A stretch of 64,000 nucleotides of DNA from UHGV virus genome UHGV-0057547, one strand, 5' to 3'. A model generated the notes under the pieces. It searched no databases. It saw nothing but the letters and a program-made list of their open reading frames with translations, and was not told the DNA's origin. This stretch comes from a virus. Shown piece after piece: positions 328-62,341 of the stretch. Within the stretch, counting starts at the first letter, position 1, and every line of letters starts with the position of its first letter. The position numbers and the translations under genes are program-made.

Positions 328-3300
328 ATGGATGGTATAAAGCCACGACATTTATTATTAAATAATGCTCATAAATTAACTGCTGTTGAATGTCCAAATA
401 ATACAGAATTAATAAATATTCAGATTGATAACTGTTCTTATTTACAAAGATTGAATTTACAAGGTTGTAGTTCTTTAGGTAACTTAACATCTTCACAAGT
501 ACTTATAGTTGATGGATGTAATAATTTAAGATATTTAAATGCATATGGTACAATAATTACATCAATAAGAACTAATCAAGAAGGTGGAAACTTAGTTGAA
601 CTATATGTACCTAAAACTTTACAAACATTATCATTAAGAAATCAATATAGTTTAACAACTATAGGAATACCTAATGCTAATGTTCATGGTGATAGTAGAT
701 TATATGACCTTAGAAATAAAGCTAGTAATATAGCAACATTTTCATTAATAAATTGTCCTTTAGTTAATAGATTGACTTACAATTCATCATATAATATTAA
801 TAGTAATTTCTTTGATATACATGGGAATGAAAGAACTTCAAGTGAAATATCTTCTTTAACTTATGTTGGAAAATGGAGAAGGTTGATGGATTGGGGAAAT
901 GGATTAGCTAATGCTAGTGAGATTCATATAGAAAACAGTTGTCTTGATATTGAGGAAATGTCATTTAGAGGTAGTAGTAAATTAGAAAACTTAACATTAA
1001 GAAACTTACCTAATTTAAAGACGTTAATGATAGGAGCAAACTGTGCTGGTTATAGATGGAATACACAAAATAATAATTATGAATCAGATAGATATGATAC
1101 TTATGGTGAATTTAATTGGTCAGGATTAGTTATAAGAGATTGTCCTAATATAGAAGATTTTAGATTTCAAGAATTATTCCCATTCAATTGGAATGGTGGA
1201 TGGAATGGCAACTTAAGTTATCTTACATTTAAAGAAGGTACTAATTCTCTAAATCTTGCTGAAAAATTCCCTAATTTAAAAACATTTTTCTGTAATTTGG
1301 CGACTCAAAATATACATCAAATAATTTTACCTCAATCATTAACTTGTTTAAATACAAGTGCTTGGCAAACAAAACATGATGAAGGTTATCCACATGAAGT
1401 TAAATTAGAAAAATTTAATATAAATAGCGTTTATTTTGAAGGAGAACATACAGATGACTATGTAGGTATTGATTTAGGAAATCATTTAATGCATGATGTT
1501 AGAATAGTAGCACCTTATGCAACTGAATTAATAGGATTAAATATTAAAAATGAATGGGTTAATCCTATATTCCAAACATTTAAAGAAGATAATCATGAAA
1601 CAAGACCTTCATTAACACCTCAAGGTAAAATAGATTTATCTGAATTTAAATGGAAAAGAATATCAAACTGGTTTCAATACATTGACTTTACTAAAGGAAC
1701 TTGTGAAATAGTACAACCTACTAATTGGGATAGTTTCCTAAAAAACATTGAAAGAGCAAGTGGTATGTTCTATCGTTGCAAGAATCCTAATTTCACTTGG
1801 GAATTTGCAATGAAATTCTTTGGTAAAATGGCTGATACAAGTGATAAAAATACAATGTATAAATATGCACAATTAAAAGAACAAACTAGTTTTGAAGAAG
1901 ATGCTGTTGATATGATTTCTAATAAAGGAGCGTTTTATTATGATTATCAAGCTAAACCATTTGAAGGAACTAATTTAAAATATGTTAAATCTATACAGTT
2001 AACAGCAACAGATGGATGTTATGGCTTATTTTATGGTTGCGAAAGTATTATAAAAGTTGGAGATATAAGCATGACAGGAAATAATAACAACTGGTATGCT
2101 AATGAGAGTTTTTTCCAAGATGCAGTAAATCTTGAAGAAGTTGGAAACATTTATTCAACAAGAAATAAAGAAAATGGAACTACGACTAGTGCTCATGCAT
2201 TTTTTAGAAATTGTAAAAAATTAAGAAAAATAGGTAGAATTGATATGTCTGTATCAAATGGCAATTATATGTTTAATGAGTGTACTTCCTTAGTAGATGG
2301 AAGTATAGAACAATTACCATATACTGGAAAGATGACTAATGGTGCTTATATGTTTAGAAACACTAGATTTACAACAATTGAATTGGAAAATTTATCTAGT
2401 TTACAAAATGCTGATAATATGTTTTCTGCTAATCCTAATTTAAAAACAATTCATTTACCAAATATAGATAGAACAAGTCCTTTAAATAATTTGGCAAATA
2501 CATTTAATGGAGATAAGTCCTTAACAAAAATAACAATTGAAGGAGATACTTTACCAATTGGATTAAAAACTATGACTGGTACTTTTAATGGTTGTATTTC
2601 ATTAACTTCATTACCACCAATTCCTCAAGATTTTACATATGATATAAATATGCAATATTGTTGTTATAATTGTGATTCTTTAACTGATGATACGATTTAT
2701 AAAGTAATACCATACAGATGTACACATACTCAATACATGTATGGTTATTGTGATGGATTAATTAATCCAATAGTAGAAGTTAAATCTGATAGTGTTTATG
2801 CTAGACAAATGTTTGAATATTGTAAAAATATTAAAACATTAACAGTTAATTTTACAGGTAGATTATTAAGAACAAGTATGTATTTTGCTCAATATTGTAC
2901 AAATATGACTCAATTTAATATGAAGTTTCCCGATTCTTTATATATGCATGATTATTATGAAACTGGTGTTGCTCATTATAATATGTTACAATATTGTGAA
3001 AATTTATCTATTGTGAATTTAGACATGAGTAGTTTATCAAAGACTAATACTAGAAGTGATTTTGGTGGTATGTTTTATCAAGATAAACATATTACAGAAA
3101 TACATGGATTAGATTTAACATATTTAAAGAAAGTTGTACATCCATTAACATCTAATGGGCAAGACCACTACGATTGGCATAATGATTCTATCACATATGG
3201 TGGTTCATATGATGACTTAAGTGTGCTTGAATTAACTGGTAAACTAAATACAAGTTATAACTTTAGAAATATAACTACAATAACACATACTAAAGAAATA

Positions 3301-3456
3301 CTAAAACATCTTGATGTTGTTACTAATGAAACTTTAGGTTTAACTTATAATATTATGGATGCTATTAATGATGAATTAACTGAATATGTTGACCCTGAAT
3401 TAAAACAATTAGCCCTTACAGCAAGAGATAATGGATGGACTTTCGTAGTTGTATAG
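328..3456 (+). CDS. Tail fibre / receptor-binding protein with leucine-rich repeats (BspA-type LRR blocks in the C-terminal half)
   Basis: 1042-aa ORF. N-terminal LxxLxLxN-type repeats. Central and C-terminal repeated F.NC.SL..I.LP blocks typical of BspA-like LRRs. First gene of the plus-strand structural block. Confidence 0.55.
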   Translation: MDGIKPRHLLLNNAHKLTAVECPNNTELINIQIDNCSYLQRLNLQGCSSLGNLTSSQVLIVDGCNNLRYLNAYGTIITSIRTNQEGGNLVELYVPKTLQTLSLRNQYSLTTIGIPNANVHGDSRLYDLRNKASNIATFSLINCPLVNRLTYNSSYNINSNFFDIHGNERTSSEISSLTYVGKWRRLMDWGNGLANASEIHIENSCLDIEEMSFRGSSKLENLTLRNLPNLKTLMIGANCAGYRWNTQNNNYESDRYDTYGEFNWSGLVIRDCPNIEDFRFQELFPFNWNGGWNGNLSYLTFKEGTNSLNLAEKFPNLKTFFCNLATQNIHQIILPQSLTCLNTSAWQTKHDEGYPHEVKLEKFNINSVYFEGEHTDDYVGIDLGNHLMHDVRIVAPYATELIGLNIKNEWVNPIFQTFKEDNHETRPSLTPQGKIDLSEFKWKRISNWFQYIDFTKGTCEIVQPTNWDSFLKNIERASGMFYRCKNPNFTWEFAMKFFGKMADTSDKNTMYKYAQLKEQTSFEEDAVDMISNKGAFYYDYQAKPFEGTNLKYVKSIQLTATDGCYGLFYGCESIIKVGDISMTGNNNNWYANESFFQDAVNLEEVGNIYSTRNKENGTTTSAHAFFRNCKKLRKIGRIDMSVSNGNYMFNECTSLVDGSIEQLPYTGKMTNGAYMFRNTRFTTIELENLSSLQNADNMFSANPNLKTIHLPNIDRTSPLNNLANTFNGDKSLTKITIEGDTLPIGLKTMTGTFNGCISLTSLPPIPQDFTYDINMQYCCYNCDSLTDDTIYKVIPYRCTHTQYMYGYCDGLINPIVEVKSDSVYARQMFEYCKNIKTLTVNFTGRLLRTSMYFAQYCTNMTQFNMKFPDSLYMHDYYETGVAHYNMLQYCENLSIVNLDMSSLSKTNTRSDFGGMFYQDKHITEIHGLDLTYLKKVVHPLTSNGQDHYDWHNDSITYGGSYDDLSVLELTGKLNTSYNFRNITTITHTKEILKHLDVVTNETLGLTYNIMDAINDELTEYVDPELKQLALTARDNGWTFVVV

Positions 3457-3468
3457 GAGAGTGGTAAA

Positions 3469-4041
3469 ATGAAAATTTATGTAAATAATTTAGGAATAAC
3501 TTGTGTTGAACCTGATGAAGGTTATCTTCTTAAAAAAGGAGATATGATATGTAAAAAAGCATATTTAGGTATTAACGATAGAGCCGAATTATATGAACAA
3601 ATCGTTGATGAAAATTATGTTTATAAAGAAGAGGATGAAAAAGAAGAAGTAACGGAAACTTCTTCTTTGGATTCTATTAAAGCTGAATTAATTAAATTAA
3701 GTAAATCAAAATTAGCTACTTACTTAGAAGAACATCCATTATTTTCTAAAGCTAAATATAAGGAAGGTAGATATTATAATGTAGATAGTGACCATCAATC
3801 AAGAATTGCTTCACAATTATTATTGTATCAAGGTAACATATCACTGGGTTTAGAGTATCAATTAACATGGAATGATACAGGTAGTGTATGTGAAAATTGG
3901 ACTTTTGAAGAATTGTTTAAATTATCCAATGAAATAAATGCTTATATAAAACCAATAATAAAAAAACAACAAGAAATAGAAGTAGATATAAGAAATACTG
4001 AAACTAAAGAAGAATTAGATAAAATAGAAATAAAATATTAA
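3469..4041 (+). CDS. Hypothetical protein, possible tail-fibre accessory/chaperone
   Basis: 190-aa ORF with RBS GGAGAG, immediately downstream of the fibre gene. Acidic. Confidence 0.35.
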   Translation: MKIYVNNLGITCVEPDEGYLLKKGDMICKKAYLGINDRAELYEQIVDENYVYKEEDEKEEVTETSSLDSIKAELIKLSKSKLATYLEEHPLFSKAKYKEGRYYNVDSDHQSRIASQLLLYQGNISLGLEYQLTWNDTGSVCENWTFEELFKLSNEINAYIKPIIKKQQEIEVDIRNTETKEELDKIEIKY

Positions 4042-4062
4042 CGAGTGCAAAAGTCTTATTAT

Positions 4063-4100
4063 ACCTATGAGAGTAAATACTTTCATAGGTATTTTTTATT
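4063..4100 (+). terminator. Rho-independent terminator
   Basis: 8-bp stem ACCTATGA/TCATAGGT followed by ATTTTTTATT. Confidence 0.6.
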
Positions 4101-4997
4101 ATGGAAGGAGTGAAAAAAATGGATACAGAACATGGAAAAATTAATTTAGAAGAATGGGTAAATAAAGAAATTATCAAGGCTAATAAAATAAATAAATATA
4201 ACCAAAATATTGATAATTTATGGATACAAATAGAATATTTAGATTCACTAATTGGAGAAAATGTAGAATCTAATAAAATTATTTTCCATAGTGGATTAGA
4301 AGATGTTGGTGGTGATACAGTAGAAGATTTCTTAAATTATGTAAAAAATCAATTATGGTTATTAGGAAGTGCTCATATAGATATAAATAATTCCATTAAA
4401 ACAATTCAAACCAATTTTAATAATTTAGAAAATAAAAAATATAAAGCTACAGATGTAGAATTCAAAAAATATACATATGTAAATGTTGGAGATTTTTTAA
4501 ATTATTTAGACAATCAATTAACTGCAACTAATGATAAGGTTAAAACGAATGAAAAAAGTATAACAGCTACAAATACTAATGTATCAGAAAATGCCAATAG
4601 CATTACAGGTTTAAGAACTCAATTGAAAGGTATTAATACTTCTCTAGCTTCTATAAAACAAACTACTGATTCATTAAAAAATTTAACTGCTGATAAAATA
4701 ATCTTTGATAATAAAGATTATTCAAATATTATTAACGTTAATGATTTTTTAATTTTCTTAGATAATGCAATAAAAACTAATACAGGTAATATAGATATTA
4801 ATAAAGCAAATATTGAAAATGTTAAAAAAAGTTTAAATAATTTAAATGCTACTGAAGTAAAATATAATAATGAGAATTATTCTAATGTTAATGATTTTTT
4901 AAATTATTTAAATGAAAGTGTTCAAAATAATAAAAAAAATATAGATGAAATTTTAAAGAAAATAGAAGAAATTTCAAATAAATTAAACACTAATTAA
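4101..4997 (+). CDS. Asn/Lys-rich coiled-coil protein
   Basis: 298-aa ORF with RBS GGAAGGAG. Repeated DFLNYL-N-(Q/A/E) heptad-like blocks occur four times. Confidence 0.4.
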   Translation: MEGVKKMDTEHGKINLEEWVNKEIIKANKINKYNQNIDNLWIQIEYLDSLIGENVESNKIIFHSGLEDVGGDTVEDFLNYVKNQLWLLGSAHIDINNSIKTIQTNFNNLENKKYKATDVEFKKYTYVNVGDFLNYLDNQLTATNDKVKTNEKSITATNTNVSENANSITGLRTQLKGINTSLASIKQTTDSLKNLTADKIIFDNKDYSNIINVNDFLIFLDNAIKTNTGNIDINKANIENVKKSLNNLNATEVKYNNENYSNVNDFLNYLNESVQNNKKNIDEILKKIEEISNKLNTN

Positions 4998-20077: not shown

Positions 20078-20099
20078 AAGTATCAGCTCCTTATATTTT

Positions 20100-20137
20100 A
20101 TTTATATTATACTATTATTTTTCTTTATTGTCAAGAG
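20100..20137 (-). promoter_or_regulatory. Consensus promoter repeat (TTGACA-N17-TATAAT)
   Basis: -10 at 20106-20111, -35 at 20129-20134. Confidence 0.55.
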
Positions 20138-21726: not shown

Positions 21727-24700
21727 TTAATTACATTTGCTATATCCACAATTTAAACATGAATCACATCCATTAGTTTTTATTAATGATGACTCTCCAC
21801 ATTCAGGACACACATTTCCTTTAAGTTCTTCTTTTTTATCATTATTCTTATTTGATTTTTCAACAACTTTCTCTATAACCTTTTCTTCTTTTCCTATCTC
21901 TTTTAAAAATGCCTTCATTTCTTTTAATATAGCCATACCACAATAACTACCATCTGATAAATGATTTCCTTTTCCTCTTTCTCTAGTAAAACTTGGACAA
22001 GCTGATACTCCAGCAAAACTTTTTTCAATCATAGATAAATCTCCACCAATTCTAAGTATAGAGGACATTAATATAGCTATACATTGTAAATTCTTTTCAC
22101 ATCCACCACTACCACTCTTAGTTATATAGACATCTTGTATAGTGTTTTCACTAGGAGACCAACCTATAAATAATTTAAGTTTTCCACAACCAATTATTAA
22201 ATTACGTTTAACATAATAAGTATCTTCTGCTAAAGATTTCCATTGACCACGTTTTAATAATTCTTTTTCTTCGTCTTCTTTTTCATCTTTTGTTGTAAGA
22301 ACACCTTGTCTAGCACATCCATCACGATATATTGTTAATCCTTTTAATCCTTCTTTCCATGCCTCCATATACAATTCTTCAACTTCTTCTACTGTTGCTT
22401 CATTTGGTAAATTTATAGTTGAACTAATTGAAGCATCTATATGTTTTTGCCATACCCCTTGCATTTTAACTCTCATGTGAGGATTTAAAGTTTGGGCAGT
22501 TACAAAGAAATTAGGTAATTCTTCTTCCTCGTTTAAACCATGAAGTTCCATATATTCTTTTGCTATTGGAGTGTATACTTTATAATAAACATCTCCTTCT
22601 TTATGAAGTGATTCAGTTTTTCTAGTATATGATAAATTAAATATAGGTTCTATACCACCACTTACCCCTATCATTGTAGATATTGAACCAGTTGGTGCTA
22701 TTGTTAATAACTGAGAATTTCTAAGTCCATATTTCTTTACTAACTCATAAGTTTCTACACTTGCATTTTTTATTAAAAATTCAGAAGTTAATATAGAAGG
22801 TTTATATTTAGGATAATGACCTTCTTCTTTAGAAAGTAATGCACTAACTTTTATTGATTCATCTGCTAATATTTTGCCTATAGTATCACATATTTCTGTT
22901 GCTTCATCAGTATCATATTTTAATTCAAGTTTAATTAACATATCAGCTATACCCATAACACCAATTCCTATTTGTCTATAATCTCTAACGGTATCTCTTT
23001 GTATTTGCAATGGATGTAGTGGTAAACCTTGGTCTAATACATCATTCATTGCTTTTACTATTGTATGAATATCTTTCTTAAATGCACATATATCAAAAAT
23101 TTTATCATTAACATAAGCTGATAAATTTATACTTCCTAATAAACAGCTTCCACCATTTGGAAGTGGTTCTTCTGCGCAATTATGAGCCACATAACCTTCT
23201 ATTATCCCCCAATGGTTTCTAGGCTCTTTAAAATCATATACTAACTTTTTACCATTATCTTTTATATTTCTAACATAAGGAACTCTACTTTCTATTAATT
23301 TATTAAGTTTTATCTTTTTATAAGTTTGATAAAATCCTATAAATTGTGCAAATAATAATATATCATCATATTTATTTATATTTACATCATAACTTTCTCT
23401 ACATTCATATTCACCATTTTCAAATTCTACCATATGTTTTTTATTTATTGTTAAATTTGCAGTTATCCCAAAATCTTTTTCTAAATTATTTATAAGTTCT
23501 AAAGCAAATTCTTTACAAGTTGTTTTATAACTTATTCTTTTATTTGAATTAACACACCCATTAGCAGAAAAACAACCTTGTAAAAAGTTTGCTTTTTGAT
23601 TTAGATTCCATTCATTATAAGCCTTAGGCATGATTCTATTTGGTAATACTTCTTGTGAAAACTGAAGTTGTTCTAGTAAATCATTATAACCTTGTAAATA
23701 TATAGCTCTATATGATTTTGTAGTATATTCATCATTTTCAAATAAATATCTTATATCTCCATCTTTAACACCTATATTAACTTCTATTCCATTATGCCAT
23801 TCACTGTTTAATCTACTTAATTGTCCATCTCCTTGTATAAAGCCTAATTTAATAAACAATTCATCATCTTTTATTGTTTTATATATTTTAGGCATAATTT
23901 TTTTATTTTTTAAATTTTTAGCTTCACATTCCTCTCCATTGATAGTCATAAATCTATGGTCAGGAGTACATGTTATTTCTTTATTGTTTGATAGTATTAA
24001 TTTTATTGTATCCTTTTCACCATTACACCATACTTTTCCTTTTGAAACTAAACCATCATAACTATATATTAATGGTTCTGTATCACATAATTCTTTTAAA
24101 GTTTTAAATCCTTCATGTGTTAATAATTTCATATCTCCAGTAAAACAAGGATTTACACCTGCATATTCAAATTCATCATCTTCACTTAATAAATTATAAT
24201 CTTCTATTCTTGACCAATATAATATCCCAGGTTCTGCGAAGTCCCAGTTGTTTCTACATAATAATTTAAATACTTCTTTAGCTTTAACAACTTTTTCCAT
24301 TTTATCATTTTCTGCTTCAAAATGTAATACCCAATCTTCATCATTTTCTACTGCCTTCATAAAATCATCATTAACTCTTACTGATATATTTGCTTTAGTA
24401 ACTTTATTTAAATCTGTTTTTATATTTATGAAGTCTATAAGTTCGGGATGCGTACAATCTAATGATAGCATCAAAGCTCCTCTACGACCATTCTGACCAA
24501 TTGTAGATGTGACCTGAGAGAAGGTATCCATAAAACTACAAGCTCCAGTAGTTTCTTTAGAAGCATTATTTACTTTCATACCTTTAGCTCTTAGCTTAGA
24601 TATGTCGACCCCACAACCTCCTCCATAAGAAAATGTTCTAGCCAAATCACTACAAGTTTTATATATATCTTCTATACTATCATCTGTTTTAAGTACATAA

Positions 24701-24927
24701 CAATTTGAATACGTTACTTTTTTACCATGTTTTTCTAATCCTCTATTGCTTAAAATTCTTCCTCCAAACAAAAATTTCTTATCTCTAATTAATTGTTTAA
24801 GTTCTTCATTTTTATTTGATACTCTATCTAACCAATCTTCAAAACTTTCACCCTCAAATTGATATTTATTATGCCATATATCAATTCCTAATTGATTATC
24901 TTCTCCTAGCCATTCTTTTATATCCAT
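21727..24927 (-). CDS. nrdJ: Class II (B12-type) ribonucleotide reductase NrdJ-like, interrupted by an in-frame intein
   Basis: YGGGCGVDISKLR block. NPC...(intein)...CAEEPLPNGGSCLL active-site region. C-terminal Cys-rich zinc ribbon CPECG...CDSCLNCGYSKC. Start likely ATG 24927 (RBS AAGGAGAGAT); the track gives 24975. Confidence 0.8.
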   Translation of the reverse strand: MDIKEWLGEDNQLGIDIWHNKYQFEGESFEDWLDRVSNKNEELKQLIRDKKFLFGGRILSNRGLEKHGKKVTYSNCYVLKTDDSIEDIYKTCSDLARTFSYGGGCGVDISKLRAKGMKVNNASKETTGACSFMDTFSQVTSTIGQNGRRGALMLSLDCTHPELIDFINIKTDLNKVTKANISVRVNDDFMKAVENDEDWVLHFEAENDKMEKVVKAKEVFKLLCRNNWDFAEPGILYWSRIEDYNLLSEDDEFEYAGVNPCFTGDMKLLTHEGFKTLKELCDTEPLIYSYDGLVSKGKVWCNGEKDTIKLILSNNKEITCTPDHRFMTINGEECEAKNLKNKKIMPKIYKTIKDDELFIKLGFIQGDGQLSRLNSEWHNGIEVNIGVKDGDIRYLFENDEYTTKSYRAIYLQGYNDLLEQLQFSQEVLPNRIMPKAYNEWNLNQKANFLQGCFSANGCVNSNKRISYKTTCKEFALELINNLEKDFGITANLTINKKHMVEFENGEYECRESYDVNINKYDDILLFAQFIGFYQTYKKIKLNKLIESRVPYVRNIKDNGKKLVYDFKEPRNHWGIIEGYVAHNCAEEPLPNGGSCLLGSINLSAYVNDKIFDICAFKKDIHTIVKAMNDVLDQGLPLHPLQIQRDTVRDYRQIGIGVMGIADMLIKLELKYDTDEATEICDTIGKILADESIKVSALLSKEEGHYPKYKPSILTSEFLIKNASVETYELVKKYGLRNSQLLTIAPTGSISTMIGVSGGIEPIFNLSYTRKTESLHKEGDVYYKVYTPIAKEYMELHGLNEEEELPNFFVTAQTLNPHMRVKMQGVWQKHIDASISSTINLPNEATVEEVEELYMEAWKEGLKGLTIYRDGCARQGVLTTKDEKEDEEKELLKRGQWKSLAEDTYYVKRNLIIGCGKLKLFIGWSPSENTIQDVYITKSGSGGCEKNLQCIAILMSSILRIGGDLSMIEKSFAGVSACPSFTRERGKGNHLSDGSYCGMAILKEMKAFLKEIGKEEKVIEKVVEKSNKNNDKKEELKGNVCPECGESSLIKTNGCDSCLNCGYSKCN
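23179..24147 (-). mobile_element. Intein with LAGLIDADG homing endonuclease domain inside the RNR
   Basis: 323 in-frame codons begin with Cys directly after extein GVNP and end ...VAHN, followed by Cys. Two LAGLIDADG-like motifs (LGFIQGDGQL, FLQGCFSANGCV). Placed at the conserved NPC(G/A)E active-site motif. Confidence 0.75.
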
Positions 24928-24984
24928 ATTATCTCTCCTTTTCAAATCTAATATAACCACTATATATTGTAGCATATAAAAAAT

Positions 24985-25122
24985 AAGACACTATATATTG
25001 TATTTTATAACCCCTAACCGTGAACTACCAACAAGCTAAAACTTATTTGCTTCTTAGGTAAAGTTACTATTGCAACTAATTTACTAAGCTCAAAAGGTCG
25101 TTCCAACCTCTATTTTTTTTAT
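24985..25122 (-). ncRNA. Putative omega-RNA (reRNA) / right end of the IS605-family element
   Basis: Locally GC-rich, structure-prone 130-nt segment directly 3' of the tnpB stop, the position where TnpB guide RNAs are encoded. Confidence 0.5.
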
Positions 25123-26223
25123 TTATTTATTTAATATTCTTAGTCCTTCATATAATATATTAATACTAGCGTTAATATCTCTATCATGATGTTTGCCACA
25201 ATATGGACAATCAAATTCTCTTATAGATAATTCTTTTTTACCAGTATTATTTCCACAATTACTACATATTTGACTAGAAGGATAATATTTGTCTATGATA
25301 ACGACAGTTCTACCATACCAATTAGCCTTATATTCTAATTGTCTTCTAAATTCATACCATGATACTTCGCTTATTGCTTTGGCTAACTTATGATTTTGTA
25401 AAAGATTTTTTACTTGTAAATCTTCTAAACATATTACTTGGTTTTCGTTTATAAGTTCAGAAGATAATTTATGTAAAAAATCTTTTCTTTGATTAGTTAT
25501 TTTTTCATAAGCTTTAGCTAAGTCAACTCTAGCCTTATTTTTATTCTTACTTCCTTTTTTCTTCCTAGATAAATCTCTTTGTAGTTTTTTTATTTTATTT
25601 TCTTGTTTTCTTAGCCATTTAGGATTAGAATATTTAACTCCATCACTAATTATAGCAAAATCAGTTAATCCTAAATCTATACCAACCGCAAATTCATTTT
25701 TAGGCAATTCTTTTATCTCTTGTTCTACTAATATAGATATATAATATTTACCACTAGGATTTTTAGATATCGTCGCCGATTTAATCTTTCCATCTTTAGG
25801 AATTTGTCTATGTTGTTTAATTCTAACTAGAGTTTTCAATTTAGGTAATTTAATATGTTTATCATCAACTATTCTAAGGATTTGTGTTTTTTGATTATTA
25901 TTTGTAGTATAACTATAATAATTATTTTTTTTAGATTTAAATTTAGGAAAACCTACATTTCTATCTCTAAAAAAATTTTTATATGCTTTATCTAAATCCA
26001 TTTGTGTATTTGCTAATGCTTGACTATCCACTTCTTTTAACCATGGAAATTCTTTTTTGTATTGAGCAGGTCTATTATACAACATTTTATTGTTCTTTTT
26101 ATAATATTCAATTTTATCATTTAACATTTTATTATAAATAAATCTTACACTACCAAAGCATTTAGAAAAATATATTTCTTGTTCTTTATTTGGATATAAT
26201 CTAAATTTATATGCTTTTAACAT
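25123..26223 (-). CDS. tnpB: TnpB (IS200/IS605-family OrfB, RuvC-like RNA-guided nuclease)
   Basis: 366 aa. RuvC-I ([11 protein letters not shown]), RuvC-II Glu region, C-terminal zinc finger CSNCG...CPYCG, then Ruv[15 protein letters not shown]. No tnpA nearby. Confidence 0.85.
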
Positions 26224-26439
26224 TTTTTCACCTCCTATCTTTAATTATTTATATATTCTTGCAATTGTTTTTCTATACTTACTATGAAATTTTACAATAT
26301 TATTCCTTTCATCTCGTTAGCTAAAATCAATTAATATTTATAAAATTTCATAAGTTGATATAATGTTAAAGTTTGTTGTTTTTCTAATGAAGCTAATATA
26401 TTATTCATAATTCATCTCTCCTTTATTAAGATTATTTTA

Positions 26440-26478
26440 ATTATATTATACTAATATTATTTATAAAAATCAATAGAA
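26440..26478 (-). promoter_or_regulatory. Promoter repeat with weak -35
   Basis: TATAAT at 26445-26450 (minus); -35 TTGATT. Confidence 0.35.
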
Positions 26479-26519
26479 TACATGTATATTTTGTAAATCT
26501 TTTGATAATAATATTAGTA

Positions 26520-26606
26520 TCAAAGAGTTATCAACGTGCTTTCATGATGAATACAACCTATCGCCTTTTTACCAACTGACTAATTGTAAATTTGATAACT
26601 CTTTAA
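26520..26606. repeat. Long inverted repeat (14-bp perfect stems, 56-nt loop)
   Basis: AAAGAGTTATCAA ... TTGATAACTCTTT immediately downstream of the stop of 26612..27598. Confidence 0.5.
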
Positions 26607-26611
26607 TAGAA

Positions 26612-27598
26612 TTATTTTGCTGAATTATCTGCGTTGTGTAAAGCTAATAATCTAGCATAGTTTAAATACCCAATTTTTCTAACCAATTTTTCAGATGAAT
26701 ATCCATTTTTAAATATCATATGATTATTTATTAACCAAGCTATATCCATAATATCTCTATCACAAAATTTAGTATATTTTATTAATATATTTATCACATC
26801 ATAAGCTGACATATTTTCATGATTGTAATAATGACAGTATCTATTTTCCTTATCTTCTGTTTTTGCTATTGGTTTACTTATATCATGTAACATAGAAGCT
26901 ATTAATAAATTTTTATCAAGTTTATCAACCTCTTTTATTTTTTTATAACAAAAATACATATGTTTACTCAAGGATAAATTATGCCATTTACTATCTTGTG
27001 ACATTTCTACACAACTACTTAGTCCTAATTCAATTAATAAATCAATGTATTCTTTATAATTATTACATTCAATAAATCTTTCTTTATCCATACCTAAGTT
27101 ATTTTTTCTTCTGTTATTAATATATAATTTTCTTCCAATATCATAATCTATAATAACTTCATCGAATCCTTCACATTTATGTGGTATTTCTATATTCTTA
27201 TACATTCTTTCTATAACTTCATCAGGAACTCGTTTGCTCCTTGTATCATTATCTATAATACAATCTATTAAATTTTTATATTTAAACAAACAAATTGCTT
27301 TAGAATAATATTTTTTCATTTCTTTTAATAAAGCTCTTCTACGTTTACTAGATATATTTGTAGCTTCATATATAGTTATATGACCATTAGATAAACTTCT
27401 TTTCGTTCTTTCCTTCATTATATCAAATATTTCTTTATTTTTACTTTGGTCTTTTATATCATTTAATAACTCTTTTCTAATTTCATCCGATGATATAACT
27501 TCTATATTTTTATCCTTATTTTCTTCTATATAATCTTTAACCCAAGATGTTTTTCCACTTCCAGGTATCCCAACTGTAACAATTAAAATTCCTTTCAT
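26612..27598 (-). CDS. P-loop polynucleotide-kinase-like domain fused to an HD phosphohydrolase domain (RNA/DNA end-repair candidate)
   Basis: Walker A GIPGSGKTS (AAA_33-like kinase) at the N-terminus. C-terminal H..D motif LHDISKP...HYYNHENM. Confidence 0.55.
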   Translation of the reverse strand: MKGILIVTVGIPGSGKTSWVKDYIEENKDKNIEVISSDEIRKELLNDIKDQSKNKEIFDIMKERTKRSLSNGHITIYEATNISSKRRRALLKEMKKYYSKAICLFKYKNLIDCIIDNDTRSKRVPDEVIERMYKNIEIPHKCEGFDEVIIDYDIGRKLYINNRRKNNLGMDKERFIECNNYKEYIDLLIELGLSSCVEMSQDSKWHNLSLSKHMYFCYKKIKEVDKLDKNLLIASMLHDISKPIAKTEDKENRYCHYYNHENMSAYDVINILIKYTKFCDRDIMDIAWLINNHMIFKNGYSSEKLVRKIGYLNYARLLALHNADNSAK

Positions 27599-28619: not shown

Positions 28620-28667
28620 ATCAACTATATCTTCCCTCTTATGAGGTACTTCCTTTCTTATTATTTT

Positions 28668-28704
28668 AATTATATTATACTAAGAAATTTATTAAAAGTA
28701 AATA
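28668..28704 (-). promoter_or_regulatory. Consensus promoter repeat
   Basis: -10 at 28674-28679, -35 at 28697-28702. Confidence 0.55.
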
Positions 28705-56068: not shown

Positions 56069-56099
56069 TTAACATCTCTCCTTTTATTAATTTATTTAA

Positions 56100-56134
56100 T
56101 TATATTATACTATTGCCATCATTAAAAGTCAATT
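56100..56134 (-). promoter_or_regulatory. Consensus promoter repeat
   Basis: -10 at 56104-56109, -35 at 56127-56132. Confidence 0.6.
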
Positions 56135-62264: not shown

Positions 62265-62305
62265 TATACATCTCTCCTTTTTATTTTTATTTATTTATTA
62301 TTTTA

Positions 62306-62341
62306 ATTATATTATACTATTACTCTTATTAAAAGTCAATA
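62306..62341 (-). promoter_or_regulatory. Consensus promoter repeat
   Basis: -10 at 62311-62316, -35 at 62334-62339. Confidence 0.6.

Follow-up and report, generated by a model that had tools for sequence, protein, structure and literature searches.

A decayed IS605-family tnpB element upstream of a gut-phage ribonucleotide reductase gene, a candidate RNA-guided homing endonuclease gene

Composition of the element

The analysed DNA (the window) is a stretch of 64,000 nucleotides from the virus genome UHGV-0057547. It contains, between 26326 and 25020 on the minus strand, an element of about 1.3 kb inserted in a human-gut phage genome of about 204 kb, upstream of the gene for ribonucleotide reductase (RNR). 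The components of the element and the features of the adjoining phage DNA are reported in Table 1.

Table 1. Features of the element and of the phage sequences flanking it, in window coordinates
Feature	Position	Strand	Sequence	Remarks
Promoter-like phage intergenic motif	26431..26473	-	TTGATT-17-TATAAT	Native; found by promoter scan
25-codon phage ORF with ribosome-binding site	26331..26408	-	MNNILASLEKQQTLTLYQLMKFYKY	Native, conserved in empty sites; upstream of the element
Truncated left end	26308..26326	-	TTTTAGCTAACGAGATGAA	Loop, degenerate right hairpin arm, conserved GATGAA
tnpA 3'-end remnant	26241..26291	-		16 codons and stop; tblastn with L106 TnpA, translation
tnpB CDS, 366 aa	25123..26223	-		RuvC triad D183/E267/D349; zinc finger C320/C323/C339/C342
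omega-RNA (reRNA) scaffold (predicted), structured core, four helices	25020..25115	-	ends in invariant GTAGTTCAC	Covariation; its end is the right end
Predicted guide	25000..25019	-	GGTTAGGGGTTATAAA(ATAC)	Native phage flank; 16 nt, 25019 to 25004; 20 nt, 25019 to 25000
Distal NrdR box (putative)	24988..25003	-	ATACAATATATAGTGT	C4, A6, A8, T9, T11 and G13 all present
Proximal NrdR box (putative)	24957..24972	-	CTACAATATATAGTGG	Same six positions present; 15 bp from distal box

The 366-aa product had been recognized as TnpB in a previous, sequence-only reading of this DNA, on account of its RuvC motifs and of a CxxC…CxxC zinc finger. Both assignments hold, as the protein contains the domains HTH_OrfB_IS605 (71.3 bits), OrfB_IS605 (RuvC, 95.4 bits) and Cas12f1-like_TNB (zinc ribbon, 93.3 bits), all scoring above the Pfam gathering cut-offs. 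Catalytic residues, which that reading had proposed to check for mutations by careful alignment, proved intact: D183, E267 and D349 are aligned with D191, E278 and D361 of ISDra2 TnpB (E=1e-83). The triad and the four cysteines of the zinc finger are unchanged in all of the four phage TnpB copies compared, and dN/dS relative to the other phage copies ranges between 0.14 and 0.27, at a divergence of dS 0.3-0.5. On these comparisons, the TnpB nuclease gene is intact and selectively constrained.

TnpB genes are extremely common phage passengers, with homologues in 438 phage records. The identical protein is found, in the same context, on at least 20 contigs, and unannotated metagenomic copies are 80-90% identical to it, while the best bacterial relatives, from Paenibacillus, Clostridium, Enterococcus and others, reach only 58-66%. 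The closest annotated phage homologue is OrfB/TnpB of Clostridium phage c-st (65.6% aa identity over 98% of the protein), likewise phage-borne and annotated merely as a transposase, but far more diverged than the metagenomic copies. Megablast of 24700-26700 against annotated phages, a collection which does not contain this phage, gave no match, and neither a second tnpB nor a solo scaffold or left-end hairpin was found elsewhere in the 64-kb window.

A tblastn search of the 64-kb window with the TnpA of the lineage detected only a 16-codon C-terminal remnant, from 26291 to 26241, in agreement with the previously reported lack of a Y1 TnpA. The remnant matches 39 of 46 nt of the tnpA-tnpB junction of L106, a relative in which the adjoining tnpA is still present. 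By sequence comparison, the element is derived from a tnpA-tnpB IS605-type element. Its left-end pattern occurs once in the window, against 0.03 occurrences expected by chance. In comparison with the intact hairpins of L101, L103 and L106 and with the bacterial copies, TAM, linker and left hairpin arm are absent; the right arm is degenerate, and therefore no hairpin can form. The breakpoint relative to empty sites places the left junction with phage DNA at 26323-26326, ambiguous inside a TTT(T) run, and the same comparison indicates that 17-20 nt of phage flank, TAM included, are also missing. Since tnpA is reduced to 16 codons and the TAM-LE junction, linker and left arm are deleted, TnpA should not move the element. 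In place of the IS1341-like non-autonomous arrangement postulated from the sequence alone, the locus thus holds a tnpA remnant and a truncated left end from which the TAM-LE junction is gone. The comparison of ends, suggested as a way to define both of them and the TAM, was successful for the right end, exactly located at 25020; the left end is truncated and the TAM of the window copy is deleted.

Two candidates for a retained TAM were considered and rejected. The TTGA at 26327-26330, with a G/A polymorphism like that of the empty sites, aligns to the upstream flank of the empty alleles (TTAATTT/TTAGTTT); moreover, sites C and D and the bacterial copies place the true TAM beside the guide match, in a segment which the occupied allele has lost. 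The TTTAA/GTTAA found 11-12 nt upstream of the L101 and L103 hairpins is phage flank, only 3-7 nt of the linker being left. The same upstream TTTAA/GTTAA was considered as a TAM for L106, a locus without an empty allele for comparison.

A conserved, covarying scaffold, predicted to be that of the omega-RNA, is located directly 3' of the tnpB stop. RNAalifold revealed compensatory changes in 16 of its 25 pairs; in a MAFFT alignment (A4), 92.4% of the cells are paired and double changes are found in 19 of 27 pairs, against 30-55% paired cells in slid controls. A model built for the scaffold (R1) scores 84.8 bits from 25115 to 25020, with no other match below E=0.4 in the window, and matches downstream of tnpB in every occupied locus searched (80 other loci) and in none of the empty-site loci. 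Relative to shuffled sequences, the 3' intergenic stretch folds with z=-2.7 in the sense and -0.37 in the antisense orientation. The analysis of structure and covariance, recommended in the sequence-only reading, thus returned a sense-only folding signal and strong covariation support. Of the interval there assigned to the omega-RNA (24985-25122), only 25020-25115 is occupied by the scaffold, 24985-25019 being phage flank, which includes the guide and one NrdR box. The further statement that this 3' stretch is the most GC-rich of the region is incorrect, since its GC content of 0.33 (local value about 0.25) is exceeded by that of 24450-24549 within the RNR gene (0.42).

Scanning 24000-27500 against Rfam at an E-value threshold returned nothing relevant, because no omega-RNA family is curated there. 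In the terminal 70 nt of the tnpB coding sequence no conserved RNA structure was detected; the omega-RNA probably has its 5' end inside the 3' end of tnpB. A long-range pairing between UGAGCU and AGUUCA, present in the single-sequence minimum free energy fold, was not adopted because it conflicts with the covarying helix 2.

Right end, guide and adjoining phage sequences

The element ends exactly at 25020 with the terminus …GGTAGTTCAC, which is the terminus of the family. Copies of the element cease to be similar at this position, and from 25019 onwards the sequence again matches the empty sites; six copies have …GTAG(T/C)TCAC in common and then diverge. Because the element ends at 25020, the predicted guide corresponds to the adjoining phage sequence GGTTAGGGGTTATAAA; the guide/protospacer sequence reads GGTTAGGGGTTATAAAATAC.

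An exact direct repeat of 14 nt, CACTATATATTGTA on the plus strand, is present at 24958-24971 and 24989-25002, with a spacing of 31 nt, and occurs nowhere else in the window. It had been described as a 13-bp repeat; the repeat exists, but it is one nucleotide longer and its second coordinate was 8 nt off. A relation to the right end and to the guide or target, as then suggested, does not follow, since the repeat lies outside the element and is unchanged in relatives devoid of it. NrdR operators consist of two 16-bp boxes with C4, A6, A8, T9, T11 and G13, separated by a linker of 15-16 bp and located upstream of an RNR gene (PMC13584703). The direct repeat is native phage DNA, and it fits tandem NrdR operator boxes before the RNR gene. 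The putative distal box, present in all empty sites, abuts the 16-nt guide and overlaps the 20-nt guide by 4 nt. The proximal one overlaps a TGnTACAAT extended -10-like motif, and is followed after 30 nt by the likely RNR start at 24927, indicated by the L001 gene call and by a ribosome-binding site. The arrangement is that of the tandem NrdR boxes known from RNR operons of bacteria, with a pair of 16-bp, partially palindromic boxes joined by a 15-bp linker immediately before an RNR gene; here, in contrast, the putative boxes are contained in a phage genome, where a host NrdR might bind them.

On the other side of the element, the TTGATT-17-TATAAT-type motif at the upstream end of Table 1, of which the window has more than 15 intergenic occurrences, likely gives rise to transcription that extends through the small ORF and tnpB to the omega-RNA.

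Occupied and empty sites in related phages

The element shows a presence/absence polymorphism among collinear relatives, with at least 20 occupied contigs and 10 empty ones containing a perfect protospacer. The empty sites are uninterrupted and begin exactly at the guide match. In the 10 relatives with a perfect 20-nt protospacer, the preceding bases are ATTGA in eight and ATTAA in two. A single JGI sample, 3300045988, holds both occupied (L002) and empty (L013, L015-L018) genomes. At the occupied locus the guide match is preceded by TTCAC, with no TAM; the predicted cleavage target is intact in the empty allele only. The 16 nt or so beyond the right end had been indicated as the guide, with a protospacer to be sought in the host genome: the matching protospacer was found, but in sibling phages, at their orthologous empty site. 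An additional target in the host genome is possible.

In the empty sites of three other insertion sites, from the same phage lineage, NTTAA directly precedes the guide match. Five multi-copy bacterial relatives all feature TTTAA, a linker of about 20 nt, a hairpin and GATGAA, and terminate in AGTTCAC at the far end. These sequences suggest TTTAA as the TAM of the element family. Empty sites carrying ATTGA, which are most of those with a perfect protospacer, may not be cut by TnpB. A junction produced by precise excision would read FL… followed by GGTTAGGGG.

All four insertion sites for which empty alleles are known have an exact right-end junction and lack the left-end terminus along with 17-20, 21, 194 and 302 nt of flank, respectively. 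Such losses on the left side may simply be due to unrelated decay.

Among related phages, copies of the lineage are inserted at five or more distinct sites, and the lineage has therefore moved in the past. In its own phage lineage the element is fixed. Site A, the one occupied in the window, is filled in one phage background only, apart from L007, a 5.9-kb contig which combines a site-A left flank with a site-B-type tnpB and a site-B right flank, and which may have arisen by recombination or as a chimera of the assembly. At site B, the same locked allele is found in phages with differing neighboring genes, a pattern for which spreading through gene conversion is at least as good an explanation as exclusion alone. 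Clear co-conversion tracts were not found.

Interpretation as a homing element and alternatives

The preferred reading, to which a probability of about 0.6 is assigned, is that a decayed IS605-family element, locked with respect to TnpA, behaves, whether by homing or by destroying competitors, like a homing endonuclease gene that is free-standing and guided by RNA. According to this model, a Y1 transposase could neither excise nor transpose the element. Upon co-infection, sibling genomes devoid of the element would be cleaved by TnpB and its omega-RNA at a point about 15-21 bp inside the protospacer, immediately before the RNR promoter and the NrdR operator; repair from an element-bearing genome would then copy the locked element, left-side deletion included, or, as an alternative outcome, the competitor genome would simply be destroyed. 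The locus carrying the element would be spared because TTCAC, and no TAM, precedes the guide match. Homing of this kind, TnpA-independent and non-restorative, into co-infecting phages or plasmids has been described as possible (PMC13565253).

A broader proposal, regarded as rather doubtful, is that in this family of gut phages of about 200 kb IS605-type elements are repeatedly turned into locked RNA-guided homing endonuclease genes, spreading between co-infecting phages through cleavage of empty sites by TnpB. In such a scheme, the common loss at the four sites of the TAM-LE junction and of 17-302 nt of flank, with tnpA gone, would represent repeated locking. Loss on one side only would have a mechanistic origin, for example as the scar of an aborted TnpA cut at the TAM-LE junction followed by end joining, or would be the outcome of selection for non-excisable copies. 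ATTGA in place of the TTAA core, as found in eight of the 10 empty sites A, would reflect escape from TAM recognition in attacked phages.

Other readings were weighed against homing. Domestication by the phage, either as a weapon, through exclusion of siblings or targeting of host DNA, or as a regulator, through TldR-like repression at the RNR promoter, is judged improbable. TldRs are transcription factors guided by RNA and derived from TnpB, with a dead nuclease. The vicinity of the target (0-4 nt) to the promoter and NrdR operator of an essential gene of nucleotide metabolism would suit domestication, as would the fixation of the element in its lineage, and phage homing endonucleases are known to kill competitors (PMC13565253). 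Yet repression of the TldR type is at odds with an intact nuclease triad and with a locus which offers no TAM before the guide match; identity as a TldR was rejected, because the protein is full length, with no C-terminal truncation, and has lost no RuvC residue. As to exclusion, the site-B allele, set amid differing neighbor genes, suits gene conversion at least equally; exclusion and homing share the cleavage step, and are therefore inseparable from sequence alone.

There is similarly little likelihood that the element is an inert relic, whose gene and RNA look intact only through recent insertion and which has no activity or effect in the phage. The decay of tnpA and of the left end, and the abundance of TnpB passengers in phage records, are what such a relic would display. 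Against it stand the dN/dS values among copies already diverged in dS, the catalytic and zinc-finger residues kept in all copies, and scaffold helices which stay paired through compensatory changes, phage copies included; in addition, at four independent sites decay hits only the parts serving TnpA mobility, and never tnpB, the omega-RNA or the right-end junction.

Finally, an ordinary IS1341-type element, still moved in trans by a TnpA from the host or from another element, with TnpB only restoring it after excision, would agree with the intact right end and omega-RNA, with the past movement to at least five sites and with the tnpA retained by L106, but is very improbable, given a window without tnpA and a left end devoid of the TAM-LE junction, of the linker of about 20 nt, of the left hairpin arm and of any possible hairpin, lost alike at all four sites with known empty alleles.

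The proposed homing element shares several features with ISDra2 TnpB of Deinococcus radiodurans (PDB 8EXA, 8BF8, 8H1J): homology along the full length (284 bits, residues 3-361), the D-E-D triad and zinc finger, a scaffold which the 3' end of tnpB encodes and which stops at the right end, a guide provided by the flank past the right end, and a target made of the TAM followed by that flank. The two differ in protein size (408 aa against 366 aa), in TAM (TTGAT for ISDra2, PMC11224200, against the TTTAA-like one suggested here) and in organization, as ISDra2 is a complete transposon, having tnpA, tnpB and two intact ends, whereas the window copy has neither tnpA nor a usable left end and resides in a phage. 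ISAam1 TnpB, of 369 aa and with a 5'-TTTAA TAM (Xiang et al. 2023, as cited in PMC11224200), resembles it in size and TAM, a likeness based on these two features and not on sequence.

A further parallel is provided by the T-even homing endonuclease genes SegF, SegB and Mob, and by the 'transposon non-restorative homing' discussed with them (PMC13565253): a presence/absence polymorphism between collinear phages, and a target which, in the genome devoid of the element, is the orthologous site. The outcome to be expected would be biased inheritance, with the flanks co-converted. T-even endonucleases recognize their target by protein, whereas the window element would do so by guide RNA and TAM, and would discriminate self, unlike them, through an insertion which splits the TAM from the target.

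TnpB is usually viewed as the agent restoring elements after excision by TnpA, and as a compact genome editor. The locus described here appears to be a natural example of an element, residing in a virus, that has shed its transposase half and kept under selection only the half for the RNA-guided nuclease. Phage TnpB genes being already known as common, the population-level picture of occupied and empty sites is the informative part. The occurrence of a matching target in sibling viruses from the same sample makes non-restorative homing, or interference between phages, directly testable with defined sequences, since the guide, two TAM variants (ATTAA and ATTGA) and both alleles, occupied and empty, are available. 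The analysis also provides a compact 366-aa candidate TnpB of the TTTAA type, whose scaffold of about 96 nt is supported by covariation, and a phage RNR gene bearing putative NrdR operator boxes of the host type.

tnpB gene and omega-RNA scaffold

The hallmarks of TnpB which the sequence-only reading had ascribed to the 366-aa ORF, as well as its location between a ribonucleotide reductase (RNR) gene and a kinase gene, were borne out by database comparison. The domains HTH_OrfB_IS605, OrfB_IS605 and Cas12f1-like_TNB each exceed the Pfam cut-offs; the downstream neighbor is an RNR gene with an intein, and the upstream one encodes a P-loop kinase (AAA_33/KTI12) that also has an HD domain. The protein aligns end to end with ISDra2 TnpB, whose structure has been solved (E=1e-83). 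The same alignment revealed an intact RuvC triad, D183, E267 and D349 corresponding to ISDra2 D191, E278 and D361, and the CxxC…CxxC zinc finger is made up of C320/C323/C339/C342. All seven catalytic and zinc-finger residues are kept in three further copies of the lineage, and pairwise dN/dS values among these and the window copy range between 0.14 and 0.27, at dS 0.1-0.5. Judged from its sequence, this nuclease is intact and evolves under purifying selection; its intact triad sets it apart from TldR proteins.

The window is part of a phage genome (~204 kb in all) known from assemblies of several metagenomes. At least 20 contigs encode an identical TnpB, with the same neighbors in all, and the same locus is also present on human-gut contigs. 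TnpB genes are common in phages: homologues occur in 438 annotated phage records, the closest being that of Clostridium phage c-st (65.6% identical).

An omega-RNA scaffold had been expected 3' of tnpB, and the proposed structure and covariance check was run. In the 103 nt that follow the stop codon, the folding z-score is -2.7 for the sense strand and -0.37 for the antisense strand. With nhmmer, this stretch could be aligned over its full length to the sequences behind the stop codon in many bacterial homologues, whose proteins are only 58-66% identical to the window TnpB. When 21 sequences were aligned by plain MAFFT, RNAalifold predicted 25 pairs, and compensatory double changes were seen in 16. 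A four-helix structure, written onto a MAFFT alignment of 24 sequences, gave 92.4% paired cells, changes on both sides in 19 of 27 pairs and a covariation score of 0.526. Values were far lower in a control in which the 3' partners were slid by 1-3 columns (30-55% paired cells, scores not above 0.14), and none of 500 shuffles attained the observed ones. The covariance model built on this alignment, R1, has one strong match in the 64-kb window, at 25115->25020 (84.8 bits, E=3e-15; next match E=0.44). It also matches directly 3' of tnpB in all 80 loci searched that carry the element, with no match found in the empty-site loci. The guide scaffold is thus, on covariation evidence, conserved and covarying, as anticipated. 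RNAalifold detected no conserved pairing within the final 70 nt of the tnpB coding region; going by the analogy of ISDra2, the 5' end of the omega-RNA is probably located inside tnpB. The 3' stretch has a higher GC content (0.33) than the sequence around it (~0.25) but, contrary to the sequence-only reading, it is not the most GC-rich of the region, since 0.42 is reached within the RNR gene.

Element borders, empty alleles and loss of the left end

Metagenomic tnpB copies, 80-90% identical to that of the window, were recovered together with their contexts. These copies occupy at least five different places in related phages; their DNA similarity ends 3' at window position 25020, after a common …GTAGTTCAC, beyond which they diverge. 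By an independent route, relatives fetched via the adjacent kinase gene provided six phage genomes without the element between kinase and RNR gene. Similarity of these empty sites to the window reaches 26324-26329 and picks up exactly at 25019; the empty allele reads …AAATATTAATTAATTTATTTTTTATTTTATTGA|GGTTAGGGGTTATAAAATACAATATATAGTG…, the window allele …AAATATTAATTGATTT|TAGCTAACGAG…[element]…GGTAGTTCAC|GGTTAGGGGTTATAAAATAC…. Because the similarity between copies ends at 25020 and that with the empty sites restarts at 25019, the right junction is exact.

The predicted guide is adjacent phage sequence. A perfect 20-nt protospacer is found at the orthologous empty site in ten relatives, preceded by ATTGA in eight and by ATTAA in two; two more relatives (L013, L018) contain diverged protospacers. 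Occupied and empty genomes are both contained in JGI sample 3300045988.

Features of the element and its surroundings, in window coordinates (LE, RE: left and right end)
Feature	Position	Strand	Basis
tnpB ORF, 366 aa	25123-26223	minus	ORF call and Pfam
Truncated LE TTTTAGCTAACGAGATGAA	26326->26308	minus	loop, degenerate right arm and GATGAA
tnpA C-terminal remnant, 16 codons	26291->26241	minus	tnpA homology, translation
Predicted guide GGTTAGGGGTTATAAA(ATAC)	25019->25004(25000)	minus	flank beyond exact RE junction
Distal 16-mer box ATACAATATATAGTGT	25003->24988	RNR coding strand	NrdR consensus positions
Proximal 16-mer box CTACAATATATAGTGG	24972->24957	RNR coding strand	NrdR consensus positions
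Promoter-like motif copies (examples)	26431-26454, 28660-28683, 62297-62319, 41449-41487, 44881-44903, 20094-20119, 56095-56112		

The canonical form is seen in five bacterial species that carry multiple copies of related elements, in which matching begins directly after TTTAA, proceeds through a ~20-nt linker, a hairpin and GATGAA…, and ceases directly after …AGTTCAC. TTTAA, right behind which these copies start matching, is therefore the target-adjacent motif (TAM) of the family, and it is the TAM reported for ISAam1 TnpB (PMC11224200). By its protein and RNA, the window copy belongs to the TnpB/omega-RNA family as a regular, ISDra2-like member with a TAM of the TTTAA type. The hairpin, ATCCCATTAGCnnnGCTAATGGGAT, is retained in phage copies L101, L103 and L106, the last of which also retains a Y1 tnpA upstream of tnpB.

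The window copy lacks TAM, linker and left hairpin arm, together with the 17-20 nt of phage DNA preceding the protospacer in empty sites; the truncated LE pattern occurs once in the window, against 0.03 expected by chance. The reported absence of TnpA holds, as only the 16-codon remnant was found and no other tnpA within the 64 kb. In IS200/IS605 elements the Y1 transposase recognizes and cuts the TAM|LE junction, helped by the hairpin; from the loss of both we infer that TnpA can neither excise nor move the window copy. The proposed IS1341-like unit was not sustained, the element differing from IS200/IS605 and IS1341 transposons in two defining features, having neither TnpA nor a usable left end.

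Empty alleles were obtained for three further insertion sites (B, C, D) besides that of the window (A).

Occupied and empty alleles at four insertion sites; TAM, motif before the guide match in the empty allele; missing flank, in the occupied allele
Site	Occupied	Empty	TAM	Missing flank
A	window	L013-L018, L116-L121	ATTGA/ATTAA	17-20 nt
B	L003, L009	L099	TTTAA	21 nt
C	L101	L126-L130	TTTAA/CTTAA	194 nt
D	L103	L122-L125	ATTAA/GTTAA	302 nt

At all four sites the RE|flank junction is exact and the flank directly follows the TAM in the empty allele, which is the signature of canonical insertion. The allele comparison indicates that the left junction was later hit, at each of the four, by a deletion across the TAM|LE boundary. 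At site B the LE hairpin is lost too, and a ~29-codon 5' fragment of tnpA is kept; at sites C and D the surviving linker measures only 3-7 nt. The recurrent deletion may plausibly derive from aborted cleavage at the TAM|LE boundary, repaired by end joining; selection for non-excisable copies is also plausible.

Proposed mode of action

In the most likely reading, TnpB and omega-RNA would cut the empty allele of a sibling genome during mixed infection; recombination with the occupied genome would copy the locked element into the cut allele, or the competitor genome would be lost. The element's own locus would be spared, since the guide match is preceded there by TTCAC, which is not a TAM. Such a cut-and-copy process would correspond to the 'non-restorative' homing listed as theoretically possible for phages and plasmids in a 2026 review (PMC13565253). 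The weakest point is that ATTGA, which has no TTAA core, stands at most of the perfect empty sites; its prevalence may reflect either a tolerant TAM or escape variants. Of some interest is the population picture, with locked copies at several sites, pairs of guide and exactly matching protospacer among sibling phages that co-occur, and the recurrent one-sided deletion.

RNR promoter and other elements around the locus

A 13-bp direct repeat had been tentatively related to the element end or to the guide. Its first copy does start at 24958, but the exact repeat is 14 nt long (24958-24971 and 24989-25002, spacing 31 nt) and, being located beyond the element end and unaltered in all empty sites, is not part of the element; no further occurrence of the 14-mer was found in the window. 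NrdR operators consist of paired 16-bp boxes, partially palindromic, with a 15-16 bp linker and conserved positions C4, A6, A8, T9, T11 and G13 (PMC13584703). Both window boxes have all six positions, with a 15 bp linker, and the repeat is best read as a predicted operator for host NrdR control of the phage RNR gene. An extended -10-like motif, TGnTACAAT, overlaps with the proximal box. The true RNR start is likely ATG 24927 (MDIKEW…), which has a GGAGAG ribosome-binding site and is also the start called on contig L001; the longest-ORF start, ATG 24975 (MLQYIVVIL…), falls within the proximal box and is probably spurious.

Selfish elements have a hotspot at the RNR locus. The intein of the window RNR gene (21727-24975, minus) contains a LAGLIDADG domain (Pfam). 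In L018 (5311-7186) the same RNR gene is interrupted by an intron-like insert of ~1 kb with a 265-aa HTH/LAGLIDADG-like ORF. A different, 840-aa RNR without intein is encoded in L013, L015 and L016 (L015:5337-7859), where the NrdR boxes are identical.

The tnpA of L106 (2070-2489), located beside an 86%-identical tnpB, contains three in-frame TGA, all at Trp positions of Y1 transposases (HVWKKY, YFWKEK, TFWTDGYF), and under genetic code 4 it encodes an intact 140-aa TnpA. In its neighbor genes Trp is encoded by TGG, and TGA is never the stop codon. Possible explanations are that stop codons are recoded, that the gene came from a code-4 host, or that it is an unusual pseudogene. Among the 18 long ORFs checked in the window none stops at TGA (16 TAA, 2 TAG), which is compatible with the very low GC content; the 64 kb yielded no tRNA genes.

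A ~24-40 nt motif, in sense orientation …TTGAyt-N17-TATAATATAA…, is repeated in numerous intergenic stretches that precede minus-strand genes, and is presumably the standard sigma-70-type promoter of the phage. A similar motif is located directly upstream of tnpB in the site-B copy (L003:2929-2989). The occupied site-B allele also lacks 19 nt of right flank, AATGAGAATCATAGTATAA, belonging to the promoter-like motif that precedes the 107-aa gene downstream (L003:4195-4240 vs L099:2455-2500); this gap starts 14 nt beyond RE, just after the first 14 nt of guide match.

Two further contigs contain composite arrangements. In L012 the left end of a 90%-identical tnpB copy (3001-4104) is wholly absent, and a second, solo scaffold (2854-2962; R1, 77 bits), with terminus GTAGTTCAC, lies 41 nt upstream of the tnpB start codon, which suggests that one insertion lies in tandem with, or nested in, another, or that a scaffold-only remnant has a guide of its own. 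L007, a 5.9-kb contig (ERZ27252608 k141_105665), retains the left flank of the window (kinase, small ORF, truncated LE), followed by tnpB of the site-B type and by the right flank of site B with its 107-aa gene. Either two element copies have recombined here, or assembly across the repeat has produced a chimera.
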